Source: Ostreococcus lucimarinus (taxonomy: Eukaryota). From it: DNA of 64,000 nucleotides. The notes under the pieces are model-generated. The model saw nothing but the letters and a program-made list of their open reading frames with translations. It was not told the origin of the DNA and made no database searches. Of the stretch, positions 4,469 through 14,503 are shown one piece after another (position 1 is the first letter of the stretch; every line of letters starts with the position of its first letter). A program made the position numbers and the translations under genes. The stretch lies in the NCBI GenBank assembly GCA_000092065.1, contig CP000581.1; one strand, given 5' to 3'.

Positions 4469-6394
4469 TCAGCTCGGTCCCATCGAGATTGGAACACCTT
4501 GCGAGGAAGCCTTGGAGCCAAGTTTTTCCTTCATGGTGTCCGTGGTCGAGCCCGGGGCGTCTTTGTAGTTGCCTAAAAACCTTGAGCGGAGTTCGCGGAA
4601 CATGGCGTCAGCCCTGTTGCCGCTCGTAGCGATGCCATCCTTCGTGCGCGAGACGCCGTCGAGCATGTCGTCGATGGACACCAATTGTCTACCGTCGCGT
4701 ACGCTCAATAATGCGGCTTCGTTGGCGACGTTGGCGAGCTCGGCGCCGGTGAAGCCTGGTGTGGCGCGAGAAATAACGTCGCACACAACGTCGACGTCTT
4801 CCTCGAGATCCAAACCGCGCAAGTGCACTGACAAGATTTGCGCTCTCCCTTGCTGCGTTGGCGGGCCGACAAACACGCGTCGCGTCAAACGACCGGGACG
4901 CAACAGCGCCGGATCGAGCGCGTCCGGTCGGTTCGTCGCAGCTAAAATCAAAATTCCACTGTCCTTGGCGAATCCGTCCATCTCTACCAGCAATTGATTG
5001 AGCGTTTGGTCGCGTTCTTCGTTCAGACCCGCGCCTCGCCGCGATCCGACGGCGTCGAGTTCGTCGATGAAAATAATCGCAGGTCTGGCCTTTCGCGCCT
5101 CGGCAAACAGCTCGCGAACGCGCGCCGCACCGCGGCCGACGAACAGTTCGACAAACTCGGACGCGGCGACGGGGAAAAACGCAACGCCGGATTCGCCCGC
5201 CACCGCGCGAGCGAGTAGCGTCTTACCCGTCCCCGGCGGTCCGACCAAAAGGCACCCCGTGGGAAGTCTGCCGCGAACGTTCTTGTACTTTTCGGCGTTC
5301 TTCATGATTTGCACCAATTCAAAAAGTTCGGCCTTTGCCTCTTGCACGCCCGCCACGTCGGCGAACGTCACCTTGTCGGCTTCGTCTGTGCGCGCAGCCT
5401 TTTTCCGCTTTTTATCGCCCGCACCGCTCTGTCTGTTGATGGCGTTCCGCATGATGATCATGAGCGGAATGATAGGCAACCACATCGCGAGCACGGTGAA
5501 CATACCGCGGGACGCCAATCTCGACACCGCCGCGGGAACCGCGCCGAATTCCACCCCCGCGGCTTCGAGCTTCTTCATCAGCTCTGCGTCGCCGACCAAT
5601 CGTTTCGTCTGCAGCGTTCTCGCACGCCCAACCGCCGCATTCGGCTTCAAATCGTACAACAATCGCGTCGACCCTTCCTCAAATCGCACCGTCGATATCT
5701 TCTTGCCCTTTAAATCCTTCAAAAACGAACTGTACATCGTCGTCGGCACCACCGGCGCCGCCGCCTTCTTCGCGTTGTGTCCCCTTATCGCCATCCCCGC
5801 CCCGACCGTCGCCGCCATCACCAACCCCAGCCTCCCCAGGCGCGTTCTCGCGCTCATCGCGATCGCTCGCGCCGGCGTCGCGATCACCAACCACACCAGC
5901 ACCGCGAACGCGCGTCGCGCCACCAGCCCGAGCAGCAGCGTTCGCGTCGCCACCCAGCGCCACGCCGAGAACGGTTTCCGCTCCACCGGCCCGAGATCAT
6001 CCGACGCCGCGCTCGCGCTCGCGCTCGCGTCATCCTCCCCACTCGCGCGTTCCGTCGCGCCGCCGTCGCCGCCATCGCGCGCCGCCGTCGCCGTCTTCGT
6101 CACCGCGTCCCGCTCGACGTCATTGCCTTCGCGCGCGTTATCCACCCCCTGCGGCGTCGACACCGCGCGCGCGCGGCTCTCGAGCCCCCGCGCGAGCGCG
6201 CCGTTCGCACCCGCATCGCTCGCGCGCGCTCGCGCGCCGAGCGCGGCGCTCGCGACGCCCCGGCGGTCCCGCGAACGCGTCGCGCGCGACGCCGACGTCG
6301 TCGTCGCGAATCCTCGCGCGCGGACGACGCCGCGCGGCGCGCTCGCGCGCGCGCGCGCGGCGCGCATCGCGGGCGACGGCATCGTCGTCGTCAT
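4469..6394 (-). CDS. FtsH-like AAA+ ATPase lacking the M41 zinc-protease motif (FtsHi-like, probably plastid envelope)
   Basis: 641 aa: R/A/S-rich N-terminus (presequence-like), FtsH extracellular-type domain (YSSFLKDLKGKKISTVRFEEGSTRLLYDLK), one TM, Walker A GPPGTGKT, Walker B IIFIDELD, second region of homology. The C-terminus is short and has no HEXXH, which is the architecture of the short plant FtsHi proteins. Confidence 0.7.
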   Translation of the reverse strand: MTTTMPSPAMRAARARASAPRGVVRARGFATTTSASRATRSRDRRGVASAALGARARASDAGANGALARGLESRARAVSTPQGVDNAREGNDVERDAVTKTATAARDGGDGGATERASGEDDASASASAASDDLGPVERKPFSAWRWVATRTLLLGLVARRAFAVLVWLVIATPARAIAMSARTRLGRLGLVMAATVGAGMAIRGHNAKKAAAPVVPTTMYSSFLKDLKGKKISTVRFEEGSTRLLYDLKPNAAVGRARTLQTKRLVGDAELMKKLEAAGVEFGAVPAAVSRLASRGMFTVLAMWLPIIPLMIIMRNAINRQSGAGDKKRKKAARTDEADKVTFADVAGVQEAKAELFELVQIMKNAEKYKNVRGRLPTGCLLVGPPGTGKTLLARAVAGESGVAFFPVAASEFVELFVGRGAARVRELFAEARKARPAIIFIDELDAVGSRRGAGLNEERDQTLNQLLVEMDGFAKDSGILILAATNRPDALDPALLRPGRLTRRVFVGPPTQQGRAQILSVHLRGLDLEEDVDVVCDVISRATPGFTGAELANVANEAALLSVRDGRQLVSIDDMLDGVSRTKDGIATSGNRADAMFRELRSRFLGNYKDAPGSTTDTMKEKLGSKASSQGVPISMGPS

Positions 6395-6617
6395 CGCGCG
6401 CGTCGACCGTCGCGTCGCGCGCGCGCGTCGAACACTGGCGCCGTCGGCGGGCGACTCGTCTCCTCAGTCAGCGACGCGCGGCGACGCGCGGCGACGACCT
6501 CGACGCGCGGCGCGCGCGAGCGGCGCGAGCGCCGTTCGAAGACGTCGGCGCGCGCGCGCCGCCGCGACGTCGCGGCGGCGCGGGACGCGCGCACCGCGCG
6601 AAGAGCCGCGCGACGTC
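6395..6617. promoter_or_regulatory. Divergent (bidirectional) promoter between the FtsHi-like gene (-) and the desulfurase-TtcA fusion gene (+)
   Basis: ~220 bp CGCG-rich spacer between two start codons pointing away from each other. The call rests on position and composition only. Confidence 0.4.
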
Positions 6618-9600
6618 ATGGCGGCGGCTTCGACGACGACGACGCGCGCGCGCGACGACGACGCGGGACGACGCGGGACGACGCGGGACGACGCGATGCG
6701 CCTCGACGCGATCCTCGAGAGCGTTCGAAGGGACATCGTCGGACACGGGGCGACGTTCGGCGGGGCGTACGGGACGAAGTCGCTGGTGTACGCCGACTAC
6801 ACGGCGAGCGGACGGGCGTCGCGAGCGGTGGAGCGGTGCGTCGCGCGAGACGTGCTGCCGATGTACGCGAACACGCACACGTCGACGTCGACGACGGGGT
6901 CGCAGACGTCGTGCTTTCGAGCGGAGGCGAGACAGGTGGTGGCGCAGTGCGTGAACGCGCGGGTGGGATACAGCGATAGACACGCCGACGTGGTGACGTT
7001 TACGGGAAGCGGGAGCACGAGCGCGATCGATCGGTTGGCGCGAGCGCTCGGGATGCACGTACCGTTACCGGTGAACGCGCCGAGGGAAGCGAGGCCGGTC
7101 GTGTTCGTCGGACCGCACGAACATCACAGTAATATTTTGCCCTGGCGCGAGTCGTGCGCGATTGTGGTGGAAATTCCAGAGGAAGAGAGCTCGGGAATGG
7201 TGGACGTGGACGCGTTGCGCGCGGCGCTGCGCGCGTACGCGTCACACGCGACGCTGATTGGAAGTTTTAGCGCGGCGAGTAACGTGACGGGGGTGAGGGC
7301 GGATGTGAATTTAATCACGGAGACGTTGCATCGAGGAAACGCGTTGGCGTTGTGGGACTACGCCGCCGCCGCGGCGTACGTCGACGTCGACATGAACCCG
7401 GTAGTTTTCGACGAAAACACCGGTGCGTTGAATCCGTACGTATACAAAGATGCGATATTTATGTCACCGCACAAGCTTCCGGGAGGGCCGGGTGCGCCCG
7501 GGATTTTAGTGGCAAAACGCGCATTGTTCGTGAACGAAGTGCCGAGCGAACCGGGCGGAGGAACTGTCTTTTATGTCACGAGCACCGATCACCGGTATTT
7601 AAGCAACAGAGTGGAGCGCGAAGAGGGTGGGACTCAAGACATCGTTGGAAGCATCCGCGCTGGCTTGGCGTTCCAAATGAAAGCTAACGTGGGGACGTCG
7701 TTGATTGAAGCGGCGGAGGAACGACTGCGACGACGATTGTTCGACGAGCTGGAGAAGGATGAGAATATTTGCTTACTCGGACCTCGGGCGAATTCGACGA
7801 CGAAGCGCTTGCCTATTGCGTCGTTTCTCATACGAGCCCCAGCGGTGGATTCGAAAAGTAGGTTTCTACACTACTCATTCACGTGCGCGGTGTTGAACGA
7901 CGTCTTCGGCGTGCAGGCGCGAGGCGGATGCGCGTGCGCAGGGCCGTACGCGCATCGTCTTCTCGGAATATCTCCAGCTGATGCAGCCGCGATCGAGGCG
8001 CACTTGCTAGACAAAGCCGAAGTATTACGACCTGGTTTTGCGCGCGTCAGTTTGCCATACTTCGCGTCTGATGCTGAGATTGAGTACACGTTGGCCGCGG
8101 TACGCGCCGTCGCCGCGCACGGCTGGCGCTTGCTGCCGATGTATCGCATGGACGCCAAGACGGGTGAATGGAGACACGCCCTTCGAGCACGAAGTTTCCC
8201 TGAACGCAAGTGGCTCGCACACATGCAGTTTCCTGTAGATTCGGAAGAAATACACGAATCACCGCCGAGTGAAGAGGAGATATCTCGCCGACTCGACGAA
8301 CAATTGAGCGTCGGGATGCGCATTCTGGAAACGTGCGGTCAGTATCGCGACGGTGAACAACAAGGCAAAGCGAAGAACGGTCAGTTACGCATGCCGAATT
8401 CAGGTGGTATGGCTGCGGATGAGCGCATGGTGCTCGCTGGAGGCCGCGGCGACGACGACTCGAGGCTCGCTTACGACGAGGGCGAAGAGGACGACGACGC
8501 TCCTGAGCCGACGACGAATATCGAGCGCGGCGACGCGCTTCGTTGGTTCATGTTTCCGTCCGAGGCGGCTGCCTTGCTTTCAATCGCGCTTCCAGAGCAC
8601 TCGCACAGCGGAATACTACCACTTAGTTACGTGCCTCCAACTGGGACGATCACCGGCGCATTGCGTCCGCCGAATATTTGCGGCGCTCGCGAATCGGCAC
8701 CAAACGCACACGGTCAAAGTTACCGAACCGAAAGCAGGAAACACCCACTGCGCGTGACGGAAGAGTCGGGAAGTATTCGATCGGGCTTGATTCATCAGCG
8801 AGCGGCACCGTTTTGTGTAGGTGATGCACCGAGCGCACCACAGCCTTCAGTCGCAGAGGCTGAATTTCGCGCCGAATCGACGCTCGAACCGCGCGTGCGA
8901 GAGCTCACACTCGACGTGTCACCACCGATGAAAGAAGTGACGGTGACGGAAGATAGCATGTCCGAAAAACGTGTTCCGATGACAAATGATCAAACGCTTG
9001 ATGGTGCCGTCAGAGAAAAAGAAGTGAAAAAGAAGAGACACAAGTTCGCCAAGCCGTCACCAAAGTTGTTGCGCATGGTGAACCAGGCGATACAAGACTT
9101 TGACATGATTCAACCCGGAGACCGTATTTTGCTTGGTCTTTCGGGAGGTAAAGATTCTCTCGCAATGTTACACATTCTGATGTGCATGATGTCGCGTTAT
9201 CCGCCCGGAACATTTACTCTCGCGTGCGCGACAGTAGATCCCGGCACCGAGGCGTTCAATCCTCGGCCTTTGATTCCTTATGTGGAATCTCTCGGCATCG
9301 AGTACCATTATCTCGAAGAAGAAATCATGGCGATGGCGGACGCGCACATGACTGGTGACAGTATTTGTGCGTTCTGCGCGCGTATGAAACGGGGCGCTCT
9401 ATACACGTGTTGTCGCAAGTATGGTTACAACAAGCTCGTTCTAGCACAACATTTAGATGACTGTGTGGAGAGTTTCCTGATGAGCACAATGTACAACGGA
9501 ACGATGCGAACGATGAAAGCGTCGTATCTCATCGACGAGGGTGATATCACTGTCATTCGTCCCGCCATTTACTTACGCGAGAAGGCTTTACGTGACTTTT

Positions 9601-10112
9601 CTTACGAAGCGGGATTGCCCGTCATCAACGAAAATTGTCCGGCGTGCTTCGAAGCGCCCAAGGAGAGACAGAACATCAAGAAACTTTTGTCTCGCGAAGA
9701 AAGTTCGTTCCCATCGCTGTATTCGTGCATGCGTAATGCGCTAATGCCACTTTTTGATCCTGCCGCTATGGATATACTATCTATGATTCGAGAAACAATC
9801 GATGGGAGAAACAAGTTTAAGGAGCGCGCCAAGGCGCAACGCGCCGAATCTCTCGCAAACGGGAAGTGCAATCCCAAACGCGGAGAAGTTTCAATCGCCA
9901 AGAATGGTGCGAACACCGAGCCTGGGACTGAGCTTAACATCAACGAACCGATAGAACTGTCCAGTGCGTCAGAGATGCAGCTACTGGCAGAGTTAAATAA
10001 AAGGCGTCGTGAACGCATTCGCCAAACCACGAAAACCAACGACAGTGAATTCGACGCCGATTTAACGGAGAAGCAAGTGTTTTGTACCGCAGAAGGATGC
10101 AAACGTGAGTAG
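6618..10112 (+). CDS. Fusion protein: N-terminal class-V aminotransferase / cysteine-desulfurase-like PLP domain + long acidic linker + C-terminal TtcA-type PP-loop ATPase (tRNA 2-thiocytidine synthetase-like)
   Basis: Part of the 1704-aa ORF 4998..10112. Its first ~540 codons are antisense to the FtsHi gene (low-complexity translation) and are excluded. In-frame ATGs lie at 6618 and 6696. N-domain: MSPHKLPGGPGAPGIL (SxHK PLP-lysine motif), YANTHT, RGGCACAGPY (candidate catalytic Cys). C-domain: LGLSGGKDS (PP-loop), CAFCARMKRG and CPAC Cys pairs, LAQHLDDCVESFLMSTMYNGTMRTM (compare TtcA GHHRDD...MFYGG). There is no stop codon through the ~250-aa linker (8.2-9.0 kb). Confidence 0.65.
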   Translation: MAAASTTTTRARDDDAGRRGTTRDDAMRLDAILESVRRDIVGHGATFGGAYGTKSLVYADYTASGRASRAVERCVARDVLPMYANTHTSTSTTGSQTSCFRAEARQVVAQCVNARVGYSDRHADVVTFTGSGSTSAIDRLARALGMHVPLPVNAPREARPVVFVGPHEHHSNILPWRESCAIVVEIPEEESSGMVDVDALRAALRAYASHATLIGSFSAASNVTGVRADVNLITETLHRGNALALWDYAAAAAYVDVDMNPVVFDENTGALNPYVYKDAIFMSPHKLPGGPGAPGILVAKRALFVNEVPSEPGGGTVFYVTSTDHRYLSNRVEREEGGTQDIVGSIRAGLAFQMKANVGTSLIEAAEERLRRRLFDELEKDENICLLGPRANSTTKRLPIASFLIRAPAVDSKSRFLHYSFTCAVLNDVFGVQARGGCACAGPYAHRLLGISPADAAAIEAHLLDKAEVLRPGFARVSLPYFASDAEIEYTLAAVRAVAAHGWRLLPMYRMDAKTGEWRHALRARSFPERKWLAHMQFPVDSEEIHESPPSEEEISRRLDEQLSVGMRILETCGQYRDGEQQGKAKNGQLRMPNSGGMAADERMVLAGGRGDDDSRLAYDEGEEDDDAPEPTTNIERGDALRWFMFPSEAAALLSIALPEHSHSGILPLSYVPPTGTITGALRPPNICGARESAPNAHGQSYRTESRKHPLRVTEESGSIRSGLIHQRAAPFCVGDAPSAPQPSVAEAEFRAESTLEPRVRELTLDVSPPMKEVTVTEDSMSEKRVPMTNDQTLDGAVREKEVKKKRHKFAKPSPKLLRMVNQAIQDFDMIQPGDRILLGLSGGKDSLAMLHILMCMMSRYPPGTFTLACATVDPGTEAFNPRPLIPYVESLGIEYHYLEEEIMAMADAHMTGDSICAFCARMKRGALYTCCRKYGYNKLVLAQHLDDCVESFLMSTMYNGTMRTMKASYLIDEGDITVIRPAIYLREKALRDFSYEAGLPVINENCPACFEAPKERQNIKKLLSREESSFPSLYSCMRNALMPLFDPAAMDILSMIRETIDGRNKFKERAKAQRAESLANGKCNPKRGEVSIAKNGANTEPGTELNINEPIELSSASEMQLLAELNKRRRERIRQTTKTNDSEFDADLTEKQVFCTAEGCKRE

Positions 10113-10153: not shown

Positions 10154-13100
10154 TTAAACTAACAATTGCGTGTCGTCGTCGTCAGCGCCGAGTTCAATAG
10201 TTTCGTATCCTTGCGAGAGGTCGATTTCATCGGACGCTTGTCTCTTGGCTTTGCGAGCCGGCGCGGGGCTAGCGCTTTTATGATTCAATTCCTGCTTCTG
10301 ACGCGCTGCCTCCGATTTTGCACACGATTCGGCGTAAGTTACGTATTCTTTGCACTCCTTTGCGCCTGGCAAGCTCTCAATCATCAGGCGAATGTGCGGG
10401 AGCGAGTAGCCAAAAAACTCTGGACCAGAAATCGCTGTCTTCTTCGCAACTTCGCCTCTAGCCTCGCGCGCAACTTTCGCTCGCTTGAGAACTTCAGCCC
10501 ACGCGGCGGTGGCGCTTTTGGCGACGATCCGCTCGCATCCGTGTTCGGCGGTGAGGGTGAACTGTGGTTCACCTTTTGGCCCTTCCGTGATCTCTTGCTC
10601 CCATTTACAGCGCTCGTCCAAGTTGTCCAATCGAGGGTACACGCGCACCGTCTTGAATCCGACAGGCAAAATGTACTGCTGCGTCACGAAGTCTTTTTTG
10701 TTCTTTATCTCTCCCAAACATTCGATCATGACGCCACTAACTGGACCTATCGGCATACGCAGATTACCGTCGTTGTCTCGCTTTGACTCTTTCAAAAATG
10801 TTTGCGCCTTGAGTAGCTTTTCCATCGTCGTACCAGAACCACTTCGCGGAGCGCCTTTAGGCTTCTTCTCACGCGGTAACTTGGGCGCCTTGGGCACCTT
10901 GGGCTTCACTGGGCGCTCAATTTTAGGCGGAGGCTCGTAAGATTTACCTCCGAGAACATTGAACACGCGCTTCACGCGATTACTCAAGAACCTTCCGTGG
11001 ATCCACTCGGGCTCGGCGTTCACGGCTTCTGTTTCAGTTTCGGCAATCGCGATTTCATCTTCGACGGGATGTTTCATCTTCTTTTCCTTCTTCGGCTCTG
11101 GCGCGATTTTCCCCGCAAAGTTGACGGCGAACGGCAAATCAACGTCGTCGCGGATTTCAGAATATTTCCCGAATCCATGTTTGAGCGTACCAACGACCAA
11201 CGCGCGATCGTGATCTTCTGTCCACCATTCCGCCAACGGCTCGGCGTGAAGTTCGGGGATGGGCATGCCTTCAGCCGTCAGGGCATTAGCGAATCCACCG
11301 GCCTTCTGAACGGCGCTAATGCCGCCTTGCAAGAGCTCGAGGCGAATCATATCGTCGCTGGCTCGTCCACGCAGGAAGTTATTGAAACCTTGCTCAGCCA
11401 TGATGTACGTGAGGTAATCTCGGCCTTCTTCTTCCGGCAGCGCTTTTTCATCGGCGTCTTCGTCAACCGTCACGACAGCGACAAGATTCGGGAACAGTTC
11501 AGACGAAAGTGACTTCATCGCTTCTTCGACGTAGCATCTACAGAAGAGCTTCACATGCGCGAGCGTTTTGTTCTCCTTGAGTTGCGAACGCTCTTTGATT
11601 TGCTCCCACATGCTCCAACCAAACAGCATAAATGATGCAACAACACGTTTGCGTTCACCCCACGACCACTGGAACGCATTCACGGAGTTCTGCTTCTCCA
11701 TCGCCAGCTTTTCAGCAGCTTGGAGTTTCTTCATGAGCTCCTCGGCTTCCGCCTTGCGTTCCTCCTCTGCCGCCGCCGCCTCGGGCATGAGCTTCTGCCA
11801 GAAATTAGGATCATCGAGCGAGACGCCATCGGCTGACCCACCGCCGTCGATAAATGTCGCAGTCGCAAACGTACTCGGTCCCGCATCATCCGTGTTCTCC
11901 TCCGAGCTCTTGATCAGTTTCTTTTCAGACTTGGCGAGAATATCGACGATGCTTTCGTTGCACCATTGTTGCGCGCGACTTTCATCCTCAGTGAACAGCC
12001 CGTACGCGCCGTGCTTGAGCAACTCTTCGATCTCTTTTCTCGACGCCGCGGCTGATTTCTCTTCCTTTTCTGCGCTCCCAAAGATGGCTTGTTCGAGACC
12101 GAGTTTCATCGACGCCCGCGTAAACATTTCCTTTTCGTACGTGGCCCGCATGACGAGTCGATATACCTGGACTTGGCGCGTTTGCCCGATGCGATGCGCT
12201 CTCGCGAGCGCCTGTGCATCGTTTTGCGGATTCCAGTCGCTGTCGAACATAACGACAGTGTCAGCCTGGACGAGGTTGATGCCTTGGCCTCCGGCGCGCG
12301 TGGAGAGGAGAAACAGAAAAGTGTCAGAATCCTCAGCGCAATACTTGTCGATCGCTTCTTGACGTGCTTTGCCGGTGATGCTACCGTCAAGTCGCACGTA
12401 AGAGTGACCTCGTGCGCGGCAATAATCCTCCAGGACGTCCAAAACGCGCGTCATTTGACTGAAGATGAGAGCTCGATGCCCACCTTCGCGAAGATGCGGA
12501 AGGAGCTTGTCCAAGAGCTGCAACTTTCCCGCGCTCGATACCAAGGCAGTGGTGCTCGCGCCTTCCGGCGCGATGGCAGCTTCGACGCCGTCGAGCAAAA
12601 ACGGGTGCTGGCAACACTTACGGACTTCCATCATGATGTTCGCAAAGTTTGCAAAACTCTCTCTCGAGTCGCAACCTTGCCGAAGAAAGGAAAAGTTACG
12701 CTCAAATAATGCACGATAGCACTTTTTCTGCAAAGGCGCGAGCTCGCACTCGACAAGTGTCTCACTTCGCGGTGGTAACTTTTGCTCGACGTCGCGCTTC
12801 AGTCGACGCAGCAAGTACGGACCAAGAACCTTTTGTAAACGCTCGACTTGCGCAGCCTTTGCCATGCCTCCAAACGCTTCTTCAAACTCCTCCGCGTTGG
12901 AGAAGTGCTTAGAATCGACAAAGTTCAGCAACGACCAGAGCTCGGTGGTGTTGTTTTGAAGCGGAGTGCCCGTGAGTAAGCAAATGCGCTCCACCGCGAG
13001 GCTGTTCAAATCGTTCCCAAGCTTACCTCCAACTCGTTTCAAGCGATGCGCTTCGTCGACGACCATCGTACTCCATTTTGCCTTCGCGAAAGATTGGCGA

Positions 13101-14503
13101 TCGGCAGTAATCGTTTCATAAGTAGTGAGGACGATATTAGCCTTAAACGCTCGCGATATGCTCTGGGTTTCGTCAACTGGGTGATACCAGTCGTGTTCTC
13201 GCGCGAATTCGCGACCGGCTTGCTTGCCGACGTGCGTCACCACGTACGCGTCCGGGACCCAGCGCTGCGCCTCGCGCTCCCAGTTCACAATCGTTGAAAG
13301 GGGAACGACGACAAGAGCAGGGAGACCTGGCCGCACTTGCAAGCAGTGATGTATGAGAGCTAGCGCCTGCGCAGTTTTCCCGAGACCCATCTCGTCCGCC
13401 AAGATGCACCCGCGTCCGGCTCGGAAGTTGAACGCCATCCACTTCACGCCTTCCTTCTGATACGATCGCAACTCGTCGGACTCTCCGTACGAGTCGCGCA
13501 CGGTGTCGGCATCGTACGAACTCCACGCATTGGCGACGTCCTCATCCGTCTCCGCATCAACGATGGCTTGGCGCTCGCGCGCCGCTGAAGCGCGGCTTCG
13601 GACGCGTTCAAACTCTTCCAAAGCGCTCGCACCACCTTCCATCTCGCGCACGGCAGTTATATCTTCCCAATTCGTCTCGTCATAACTCATTCGAGACCAC
13701 TTCACGCACACGAGTGTTCTGTCCACCTCTTCAAACATCGAAAAGACGCGGTCGACGACCAAGTAATCCGGTTTGACGTCCACGCACGGCCCGAGCTCCT
13801 TTGGATACTTATCGAAATACCTCGCCACACGCATCTTACCCTGCACACCACATGTCGGATCGTTTTCCAACGCCGTGACTTTCACCCACGTGCAATGCGC
13901 GTACGACGTACCTTTCCACTTTATCAACGTCTCCGTCTCCTCCTTTTCGCATCGTCGCCACCCGACGATGCTCTCCACTTCTCCCAACCGCTTGCTCTCC
14001 GCCGATTCTCGCGCCCACTGCCCTTCTTCCCACGCATGCATCCCACGCATCGCGTCTCTCGCGCACTCCATCGTCACAGACCGCTCGATCGCGTCCGCCT
14101 CCCCTCGCCTCGCCTCGCCGTCCAGCACGTCTCCCCAATCCACCTTTGCCCGCTTCTCAGCGCTCCCTTCCTCTCGTCCTTCGCTCACAGGCGCCTTCGA
14201 CGAATTCATGGGTTTCATCTCGAGCAGATCTTGCGCCGCGAGATCGACGTTCCCGTGTCTACGCTCGAGCACGGCGCTGATTACGTTCGCATCGAGCTCT
14301 TTGAATGCGCCCTCGAGCGAGCGTTGTTCGGAGCGATAGAGCGGACGCGTGCGTGGTCGCGACGCGGGAGACATCGCGGCGCGCGCGATGTGCTCTGTGT
14401 CACCGCGGGTCGCCGCGCGGGACGTCGCGCGCGACGTGGTGTGATGCGGTGCGCGCGCGTTCGATCGATCGACAGCTCGAGACTGAAATTTGAAATCAAA
14501 CAC
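10154..14503 (-). CDS. CHD-type SNF2 chromatin-remodeling ATPase (tandem chromodomains + SNF2 helicase) with an N-terminal CUE-like domain
   Basis: 1449 aa. CUE-like LEGAFKELDANVISAVLERRHGNVDLAAQDLLE near the N-terminus. Two chromodomains (ETLIKWKGTSYAHCTWV; LVCVKWSRMSYDETNWEDI). SNF2_N DEMGLGKTAQ...DEAHRLKR and Helicase_C ...RAHRIGQTRQV. C-terminal SANT/SLIDE-like WTEDHDRALVVGTLKHGFGKY. Start may instead be the second Met (MSPASRP). Confidence 0.8.
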   Translation of the reverse strand: MFDFKFQSRAVDRSNARAPHHTTSRATSRAATRGDTEHIARAAMSPASRPRTRPLYRSEQRSLEGAFKELDANVISAVLERRHGNVDLAAQDLLEMKPMNSSKAPVSEGREEGSAEKRAKVDWGDVLDGEARRGEADAIERSVTMECARDAMRGMHAWEEGQWARESAESKRLGEVESIVGWRRCEKEETETLIKWKGTSYAHCTWVKVTALENDPTCGVQGKMRVARYFDKYPKELGPCVDVKPDYLVVDRVFSMFEEVDRTLVCVKWSRMSYDETNWEDITAVREMEGGASALEEFERVRSRASAARERQAIVDAETDEDVANAWSSYDADTVRDSYGESDELRSYQKEGVKWMAFNFRAGRGCILADEMGLGKTAQALALIHHCLQVRPGLPALVVVPLSTIVNWEREAQRWVPDAYVVTHVGKQAGREFAREHDWYHPVDETQSISRAFKANIVLTTYETITADRQSFAKAKWSTMVVDEAHRLKRVGGKLGNDLNSLAVERICLLTGTPLQNNTTELWSLLNFVDSKHFSNAEEFEEAFGGMAKAAQVERLQKVLGPYLLRRLKRDVEQKLPPRSETLVECELAPLQKKCYRALFERNFSFLRQGCDSRESFANFANIMMEVRKCCQHPFLLDGVEAAIAPEGASTTALVSSAGKLQLLDKLLPHLREGGHRALIFSQMTRVLDVLEDYCRARGHSYVRLDGSITGKARQEAIDKYCAEDSDTFLFLLSTRAGGQGINLVQADTVVMFDSDWNPQNDAQALARAHRIGQTRQVQVYRLVMRATYEKEMFTRASMKLGLEQAIFGSAEKEEKSAAASRKEIEELLKHGAYGLFTEDESRAQQWCNESIVDILAKSEKKLIKSSEENTDDAGPSTFATATFIDGGGSADGVSLDDPNFWQKLMPEAAAAEEERKAEAEELMKKLQAAEKLAMEKQNSVNAFQWSWGERKRVVASFMLFGWSMWEQIKERSQLKENKTLAHVKLFCRCYVEEAMKSLSSELFPNLVAVVTVDEDADEKALPEEEGRDYLTYIMAEQGFNNFLRGRASDDMIRLELLQGGISAVQKAGGFANALTAEGMPIPELHAEPLAEWWTEDHDRALVVGTLKHGFGKYSEIRDDVDLPFAVNFAGKIAPEPKKEKKMKHPVEDEIAIAETETEAVNAEPEWIHGRFLSNRVKRVFNVLGGKSYEPPPKIERPVKPKVPKAPKLPREKKPKGAPRSGSGTTMEKLLKAQTFLKESKRDNDGNLRMPIGPVSGVMIECLGEIKNKKDFVTQQYILPVGFKTVRVYPRLDNLDERCKWEQEITEGPKGEPQFTLTAEHGCERIVAKSATAAWAEVLKRAKVAREARGEVAKKTAISGPEFFGYSLPHIRLMIESLPGAKECKEYVTYAESCAKSEAARQKQELNHKSASPAPARKAKRQASDEIDLSQGYETIELGADDDDTQLLV

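Follow-up and report, generated by a model that had tools for sequence, protein, structure and literature searches.

A candidate CUE domain at the N-terminus of a subfamily III CHD remodeler in Ostreococcus lucimarinus and related Mamiellales

Does a chromatin remodeler of the CHD family in Ostreococcus lucimarinus carry a CUE domain, and if so, what does that domain bind? The question is raised by a 64,000-nucleotide stretch of this genome (GenBank assembly GCA_000092065.1, contig CP000581.1; hereinafter designated the window), which is GC-rich (0.52-0.70), dense with long open reading frames (ORFs) on both strands and finds its best protein matches in Mamiellales picoalgae. A first-pass annotation, made from the sequence alone, had assigned to 10154..14503 on the minus strand a SNF2 ATPase with tandem chromodomains and an N-terminal CUE-like module, a pairing considered unusual because CUE domains are characteristic of the Fun30/SMARCAD1 lineage among SNF2 proteins. 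We find that the CUE domain is real, translated and conserved, and that it precedes the ATPase and its tandem chromodomains. The overall best explanation, in which we have about even confidence, is that a remodeler of CHD subfamily III (CHD-III) has gained a CUE domain as a ubiquitin-linked targeting module.

The peptide quoted in the first-pass annotation, LEGAFKELDANVISAVLERRHGNVDLAAQDLLE, corresponds to ORF residues 63-95 (nt 14219-14317) and falls within a CUE-type three-helix domain at 14213..14338 on the minus strand (ORF residues 56-97, protein residues 13-54). Scored as an isolated module, this domain matches Pfam CUE (PF02845) with 26.1 bits (E=6.6e-6; cut-off 21.1). When the 17 orthologous modules of our alignment (hereinafter designated A1) are scored individually, 16 match CUE, the best with E=7.2e-7. 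A profile of A1 searched against the Protein Data Bank (PDB; 177,635 sequences) retrieves the CUE domain of Tollip (1WGL, E=2.2e-6), aligned over helices 1-3, and the CUE domain of CUEDC1 (2DHY, E=0.018), the sole matches at E<0.1. AlphaFold2 (AF2), run on alignments, predicts three helices with a mean predicted local distance difference test (pLDDT) score of 79 for a 57-residue construct and a core pLDDT of about 91 for an 89-residue construct comprising CUE and linker; in the window module, about 40 residues are predicted to pack compactly as a bundle of three helices. Sequence profiles and predicted structure together indicate that the N-terminal segment very probably adopts a CUE fold in a CHD-III protein.

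The coordinates originally given for the gene delimit exactly a single unbroken ORF of 1449 codons from GTG to stop, but the coding sequence (CDS) most likely starts further in, with the CUE domain still inside. In a eukaryote it should likely begin at the first ATG of the ORF (nt 14374, ORF residue 44), giving a CDS at 10154..14374 (-) that encodes 1406 aa and does not require an intron. The 1406-aa translation is identical to public model P0121 (NCBI, JGI, ENA and Logan; 175 contigs), and the MSP start is preserved in P0002 and O. tauri. The 1449-aa GTG-start version recurs in public metagenome annotations (P0122, P0123, P0129 and P0133); the extra segment, 14375-14503 (-), is an artefact that arises when eukaryotic contigs are annotated with prokaryotic gene callers. 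The CUE-bearing proteins bear generic public names ('CHD6', 'SNF2 super family', 'Helicase, C-terminal'), this very protein being called 'chromodomain-helicase-DNA-binding protein 6'.

Downstream of the module, the protein has the layout of the CHD family, with tandem chromodomains directly N-terminal to the SNF2 ATPase, as the first-pass annotation had it. A Pfam scan of the full protein, refined on separate fragments, locates the chromodomains at 13574..13981 (-) (ORF residues about 175-310), with two Chromo stretches at residues about 175-215 and about 258-290 (8.8e-13 on fragment). The SNF2-related N-lobe of the ATPase follows at 12599..13462 (-) (ORF residues 348-635; PF00176 SNF2-rel_dom, 1.4e-73), and the Helicase_C C-lobe at 12185..12526 (-) (ORF residues 660-773; PF00271, 2.7e-23).

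In phmmer searches, the 461-aa ATPase core scores 462-477 bits against vertebrate CHD6/7 and 453-490 bits against non-animal subfamily III homologs (FYR-bearing CHDs of protists and red algae, as well as others from chytrids and Physarum), followed by human CHD4 (438 bits), human CHD1 (415 bits), yeast Chd1 (390 bits) and ISWI (352-378 bits). SMARCAD1 (9jao_C) reaches 271 bits over the N-lobe only, below the CHD, ISWI, SNF2, INO80 and DDM1 chains. A neighbour-joining tree of 24 cores (454 columns, 100 bootstraps, ISWI outgroup; CHD4 and CHD1 cores taken from PDB alignments) groups the window protein with CHD6/7 and the chytrid and protist homologs in 100/100 replicates and leaves CHD4, then CHD1, outside; this tree is simple and sparsely sampled, with one CHD4 and two CHD1 references and no Fun30 or plant PKL/PKR sequence. 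By these sequence comparisons, the ATPase is of CHD subfamily III (CHD6-9/Kismet) and not of the Fun30 type, in agreement with the first-pass assignment to CHD. Some candidate reference sequences were discarded along the way. PHD-containing representatives considered as Mi-2 references proved to be protist proteins with the order bromodomain-PHD-chromo-SNF2-NSD-PHD; P0313, P0333 and P0363 are CHD-like protist proteins of this kind, in which bromodomain, PHD, chromo and SNF2 ATPase precede NSD-type PHD fingers. The high-scoring fish models P0023 and P0024, in which Helicase_C or SNF2 stretches occur twice and the domain order is scrambled, look like mis-assembled or tandem-merged gene models.

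The module is shared by related algae, which was the last of the three checks suggested in the first-pass annotation, after profile searches and the placement of the ATPase; each of them bears it out. It is conserved in Ostreococcus-type sequences including O. tauri (XP_003074615.1) and occurs in Micromonas pusilla CCMP1545 (XP_003062867.1), Micromonas commoda (XP_002506737.1) and Bathycoccus prasinos (CAL6318203.1), being contained in the reference gene models of all four species. With filters off, we used two HMMs, one of the module itself and a broader one to which Tollip, CUEDC1 and one metagenomic protein, P0042, had been added. The scanned proteins were 120 close homologs and 150 cluster representatives (50% identity, from 1.84 billion proteins), the representatives being those retrieved with the first 1200 aa of the window protein. 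Outside Mamiellales only P0042 matches these HMMs; all other scanned proteins stay below 5 bits, and no CUE-like match is found in the 232 other CHD-like proteins examined. P0042 (1195 aa, high GC, N-terminus ...LRAAFPGLDPEAV...) matches Pfam CUE weakly (12.8 bits, E=0.094) and is the sister of the Mamiellales proteins in the tree (100/100); these are also its nearest relatives, a search having found none closer. It retains the ATPase, the FYR module, a W-x-x-V-L motif described below and a CUE-like N-terminus with A-F-P, and chromodomains are not detectable in it by Pfam. The CUE bearers are monophyletic (100/100), consistent with a single gain, and within this sampling of sequences the CUE is a clade-specific domain gain on CHD: a CUE-type (UBA-like) three-helix domain would have been added at the extreme N-terminus in an ancestor of Mamiellales. 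A profile search of a 5.8-billion-protein database with the CUE alignment returned only 254 candidates and 5 short fragments and is uninformative on the wider distribution.

A second element accompanies the module. All CUE bearers, 23 of the 255 proteins examined, have a D/F/Y-W-x-x-V-L motif 25-60 residues past the CUE, which none of the other 232 CHD-like proteins examined contains; its W, V and L are invariant in the 18 CUE-bearing proteins that were aligned. In the window the motif reads DWGDVL (14123..14140 (-)) and follows a basic KRAK patch, one form of an NLS-like patch (KRAK/KKxx/KPKREEK) that precedes the motif. In the AF2 model of CUE plus linker the motif is not docked on the CUE and is disordered (pLDDT about 50), and a role as a CUE-docking autoinhibitor was rejected on this ground.

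What, then, might the CUE bind? CUE domains contact the Ile44 patch of ubiquitin through an M-F-P motif at the end of helix 1, with h-F-P and h-a-P as accepted variants, and a di-leucine in helix 3, which may be LL, iL or ih; both motifs are deemed essential (PMC6688830). Binding of ubiquitylated H2A has been reported for the CUE of SMARCAD1 (PMC10355287). At the MFP position the Phe is invariant in 18/18 sequences, and so is the first Leu of the di-leucine. The window keeps this Phe and an L-L di-leucine, but its canonical M-F-P reads A-F-K, a qualification to the first-pass reading, whose coupling to ubiquitin recognition is likewise only putative. The two positions are T-F-E and L-V in Micromonas, A-F-P and L-L in Bathycoccus, and A-F-P and V-L (reading V-L-A) in P0042. 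We give a little less than even weight to ubiquitin being the ligand of the CUE, which by its sequence and by analogy may be a flexibly tethered module that reads ubiquitin weakly. In the mechanism we propose, the CUE would act as a flexible targeting or regulatory module; a disordered linker, about 80-120 residues long and bearing the NLS-like patch and the W-x-x-V-L motif, would connect it to the chromodomains. Most likely it would bind ubiquitin with low affinity, using the di-leucine in helix 3 and the Phe exposed at the MFP position, and this binding would bias the remodeler toward ubiquitylated chromatin, whether nucleosomes with H2Bub or H2Aub or some ubiquitylated partner. Histone methylation would be the target of the chromodomains, and a protein partner that of the C-terminal FYRN-FYRC module. 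The logic would resemble that of the N-terminal CUEs of Fun30/SMARCAD1, arrived at independently on a CHD scaffold.

Several observations weigh against this reading. CUE-ubiquitin affinities are generally weak. On the full-length protein PF02845 scores 20.2 bits, just under the gathering cut-off of 21.1, which is probably why precomputed Pfam lists omit the CUE. The MFP motif is degenerate, its Pro being present only in Bathycoccus and P0042 and replaced by K/E/A/R/D/S/Q in Ostreococcus-type sequences and by E or D in Micromonas, and the di-leucine becomes L-V in Micromonas and V-L in P0042, the second position being L or V except in P0042. There is also a precedent for a CUE retargeted to a non-ubiquitin partner: CUE1 of SMARCAD1 binds the coiled coil of KAP1, with helix 1 dominating the interface (PMC6688830). 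The domain here could likewise be a true CUE fold that serves a non-ubiquitin protein partner, dimerisation or intramolecular regulation of the ATPase. The loss of the MFP Pro in Ostreococcus and Micromonas and the weakened di-leucine of Micromonas and P0042 would fit such a change, E and L of helix 1 are (near-)invariant, and the clade-specific W-x-x-V-L motif always accompanies the CUE, hinting at a co-evolved interaction system. Set against this are the best sequence and structure match, the CUE of Tollip, which binds ubiquitin, the invariance of Phe and first Leu within the ubiquitin-contact set, and the undocked state of the W-x-x-V-L motif in the AF2 model. We consider retargeting the chief rival reading, at clearly less than even probability.

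Doubt about the CUE identity itself has less to recommend it. Three-helix bundles are a common fold, the Foldseek E-values are all >0.1, and 8 of the 17 modules match Pfam HTH_8 (Fis-type; best E=0.0017), so a generic helical or HTH-like element, for instance a DNA-binding one, might resemble a CUE by composition only. The high Foldseek E-values are explained by the tiny size of the domain, and the HTH_8 match is weaker, covering only part of the model and always scoring below CUE, and we therefore reject a Fis-type HTH identity and regard a chance resemblance as improbable. Still less probable, to the point of being largely refuted, is that the CUE does not belong to the remodeler, either because translation starts downstream of it or because annotation has merged a separate small upstream gene. 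In the window, two Met codons directly past the CUE (ORF residues 96 and 99) could serve as such a start, and the public 1449-aa versions do stem from prokaryote-style gene callers. Yet ATG 14374 is the first ATG anywhere past the stop of the upstream TPR gene, and the frame runs from CUE to chromodomains without a stop codon, both in the window and in all the orthologs, which come from three genera. In the nearest ortholog (78% identity overall) the two Met are Leu and Ala, amino-acid conservation starts right after the ATG, and the DNA upstream of the ATG is unrelated to that of the window. The 42 CUE codons differ there by 11 synonymous and 8 non-synonymous changes, and the linker after the CUE cannot be aligned between genera, though the module is conserved across them. 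A Tara record of M. commoda flagged complete also includes the module. The conserved module beside an unconserved linker, the conservation on the ATG side and the loss of the post-CUE Met lead us to reject a downstream start, and with it a case that the first-pass annotation had named as its own refutation; the position of the ATG and the ortholog comparison likewise dispose of a merged upstream gene.

A CUE-bearing CHD-III remodeler, the reading we prefer, compares with known systems as follows. With vertebrate CHD6/7/8/9, Drosophila Kismet and the protist, red-algal and chytrid homologs, the window protein shares the SNF2 ATPase, the tandem chromodomains before it and a SANT/SLIDE-like helix-turn-helix (HTH), and to these it adds the N-terminal CUE and the W-x-x-V-L motif; it differs from the animal members examined in being far shorter (1406 aa) and in possessing a C-terminal FYRN-FYRC module, as many protist members do. 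With Fun30, SMARCAD1 and ETL1 it shares the pairing of CUE and remodeler, but its ATPase core is not of that type (271 bits for SMARCAD1 versus >=438 for CHD6/7 and CHD4), and Fun30/SMARCAD1 are not known to have chromodomains or a FYR module. The CUEs of Tollip and CUEDC1 (1WGL, 2DHY), which occur in endosomal adaptor and other non-chromatin proteins, are nearest to the window CUE in sequence, that of SMARCAD1 being more distant, and they have M-F-P where the window reads A-F-K. Since the ATPase is not of the Fun30 type and the CUE is nearest to Tollip and CUEDC1, the architecture shared with Fun30/SMARCAD1 would be convergent. In Fun30/SMARCAD1/ETL1, CUE domains have been described together with a SAM-key domain between CUE and ATPase (PMC10355287), a place taken in the window protein by the chromodomains.

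Subfamily III has previously been reported in green algae (Trujillo et al. 2022, PMC9113485). The main text of that broad CHD survey mentions neither CUE nor FYRN-FYRC, and our literature search found no CHD described as bearing either of them. As a lineage-specific variant within a known family of remodelers, the CUE-CHD has apparently gone undescribed. The proteins are already public, with precomputed Pfam lists that lack the CUE; automated InterPro annotation may already flag it.

Remodelers are known to be steered by histone ubiquitylation in few cases only, examples being the SMARCAD1 CUE with H2Aub and the stimulation of Chd1 by H2Bub. A CUE built into a CHD7-type enzyme would, if true, be a second, independent combination of SNF2 ATPase and ubiquitin-binding module. 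In its fullest form, to which we lend only tentative credence, the proposal is that Mamiellales and the metagenomic sister lineage independently built a ubiquitin-reading CHD that couples H2Bub/H2Aub to CHD7-type sliding, uniting CUE, methyl-lysine-reading chromodomains and a trithorax-type FYR module in one polypeptide and paralleling SMARCAD1/Fun30 by convergence. The hosts have very small genomes and available genetics, making a link between ubiquitin and remodeler directly testable, and O. tauri would then offer a genetically tractable minimal system for ubiquitin-remodeler crosstalk. Should the CUE not bind ubiquitin, the finding shrinks to ordinary lineage-specific domain accretion; since UBA-like domains of this small size are promiscuous and the functional effect is inferred only, we regard it as of moderate interest. 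Non-animal subfamily III CHDs carry the accessory domains CUE and FYRN-FYRC, the former overlooked by standard Pfam thresholds.

The first-pass annotation mentioned neither the subfamily III membership nor the FYRN/FYRC module in the remainder of the protein. A CHD-type SANT/SLIDE-like HTH lies at 11090..11230 (-) (ORF residues 1092-1138; PF23588 HTH_CHD1_Hrp3, 34 bits), a region that also yields weak matches to the CHDCT2 and SLIDE profiles. FYRN and FYRC form a contiguous module at 10340..10738 (-) (ORF residues 1256-1388; PF05964 4e-14 and PF05965 7.5e-20 on fragment), in which FYRN (1256-1308, 52.4 bits versus a cut-off of 24) and FYRC (1312-1388, 71.3 bits versus a cut-off of 21) are separated by a gap of 3 residues. 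The Pfam scan detects neither BRK (PF07533) nor PF23078 HTH_CHD6-9 in the window protein; PF23078 is found in FYR-bearing relatives such as C. merolae, and BRK, among the proteins examined, in animal sequences only. FYRN-FYRC modules are otherwise known from trithorax/MLL, plant JmjC demethylases and TBRG1; here both halves are likewise present, and contiguous, but the enzyme to which they are attached is a CHD ATPase and not one of the SET or JmjC type. The pairing of CHD and FYR recurs in Cyanidioschyzon merolae, Arcella, Trichomonas vaginalis, Tritrichomonas, a ciliate transcriptome and others. No FYR module was found in the animal CHD6-9 sequences examined, many of which carry BRK instead, and FYR may be an old feature of subfamily III.

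The CHD gene converges on a neighbour at 4998-10112 (+), whose true CDS is probably about 6618-10112 (1164 aa) and whose product fuses a class-V aminotransferase (cysteine desulfurase-like) to a PP-loop ATP_bind_3 domain. Only 41 bp separate the stop of this fusion gene from that of the CHD gene, and the locus of the nearest ortholog is syntenic, with TPR gene, CHD and fusion gene in this order.

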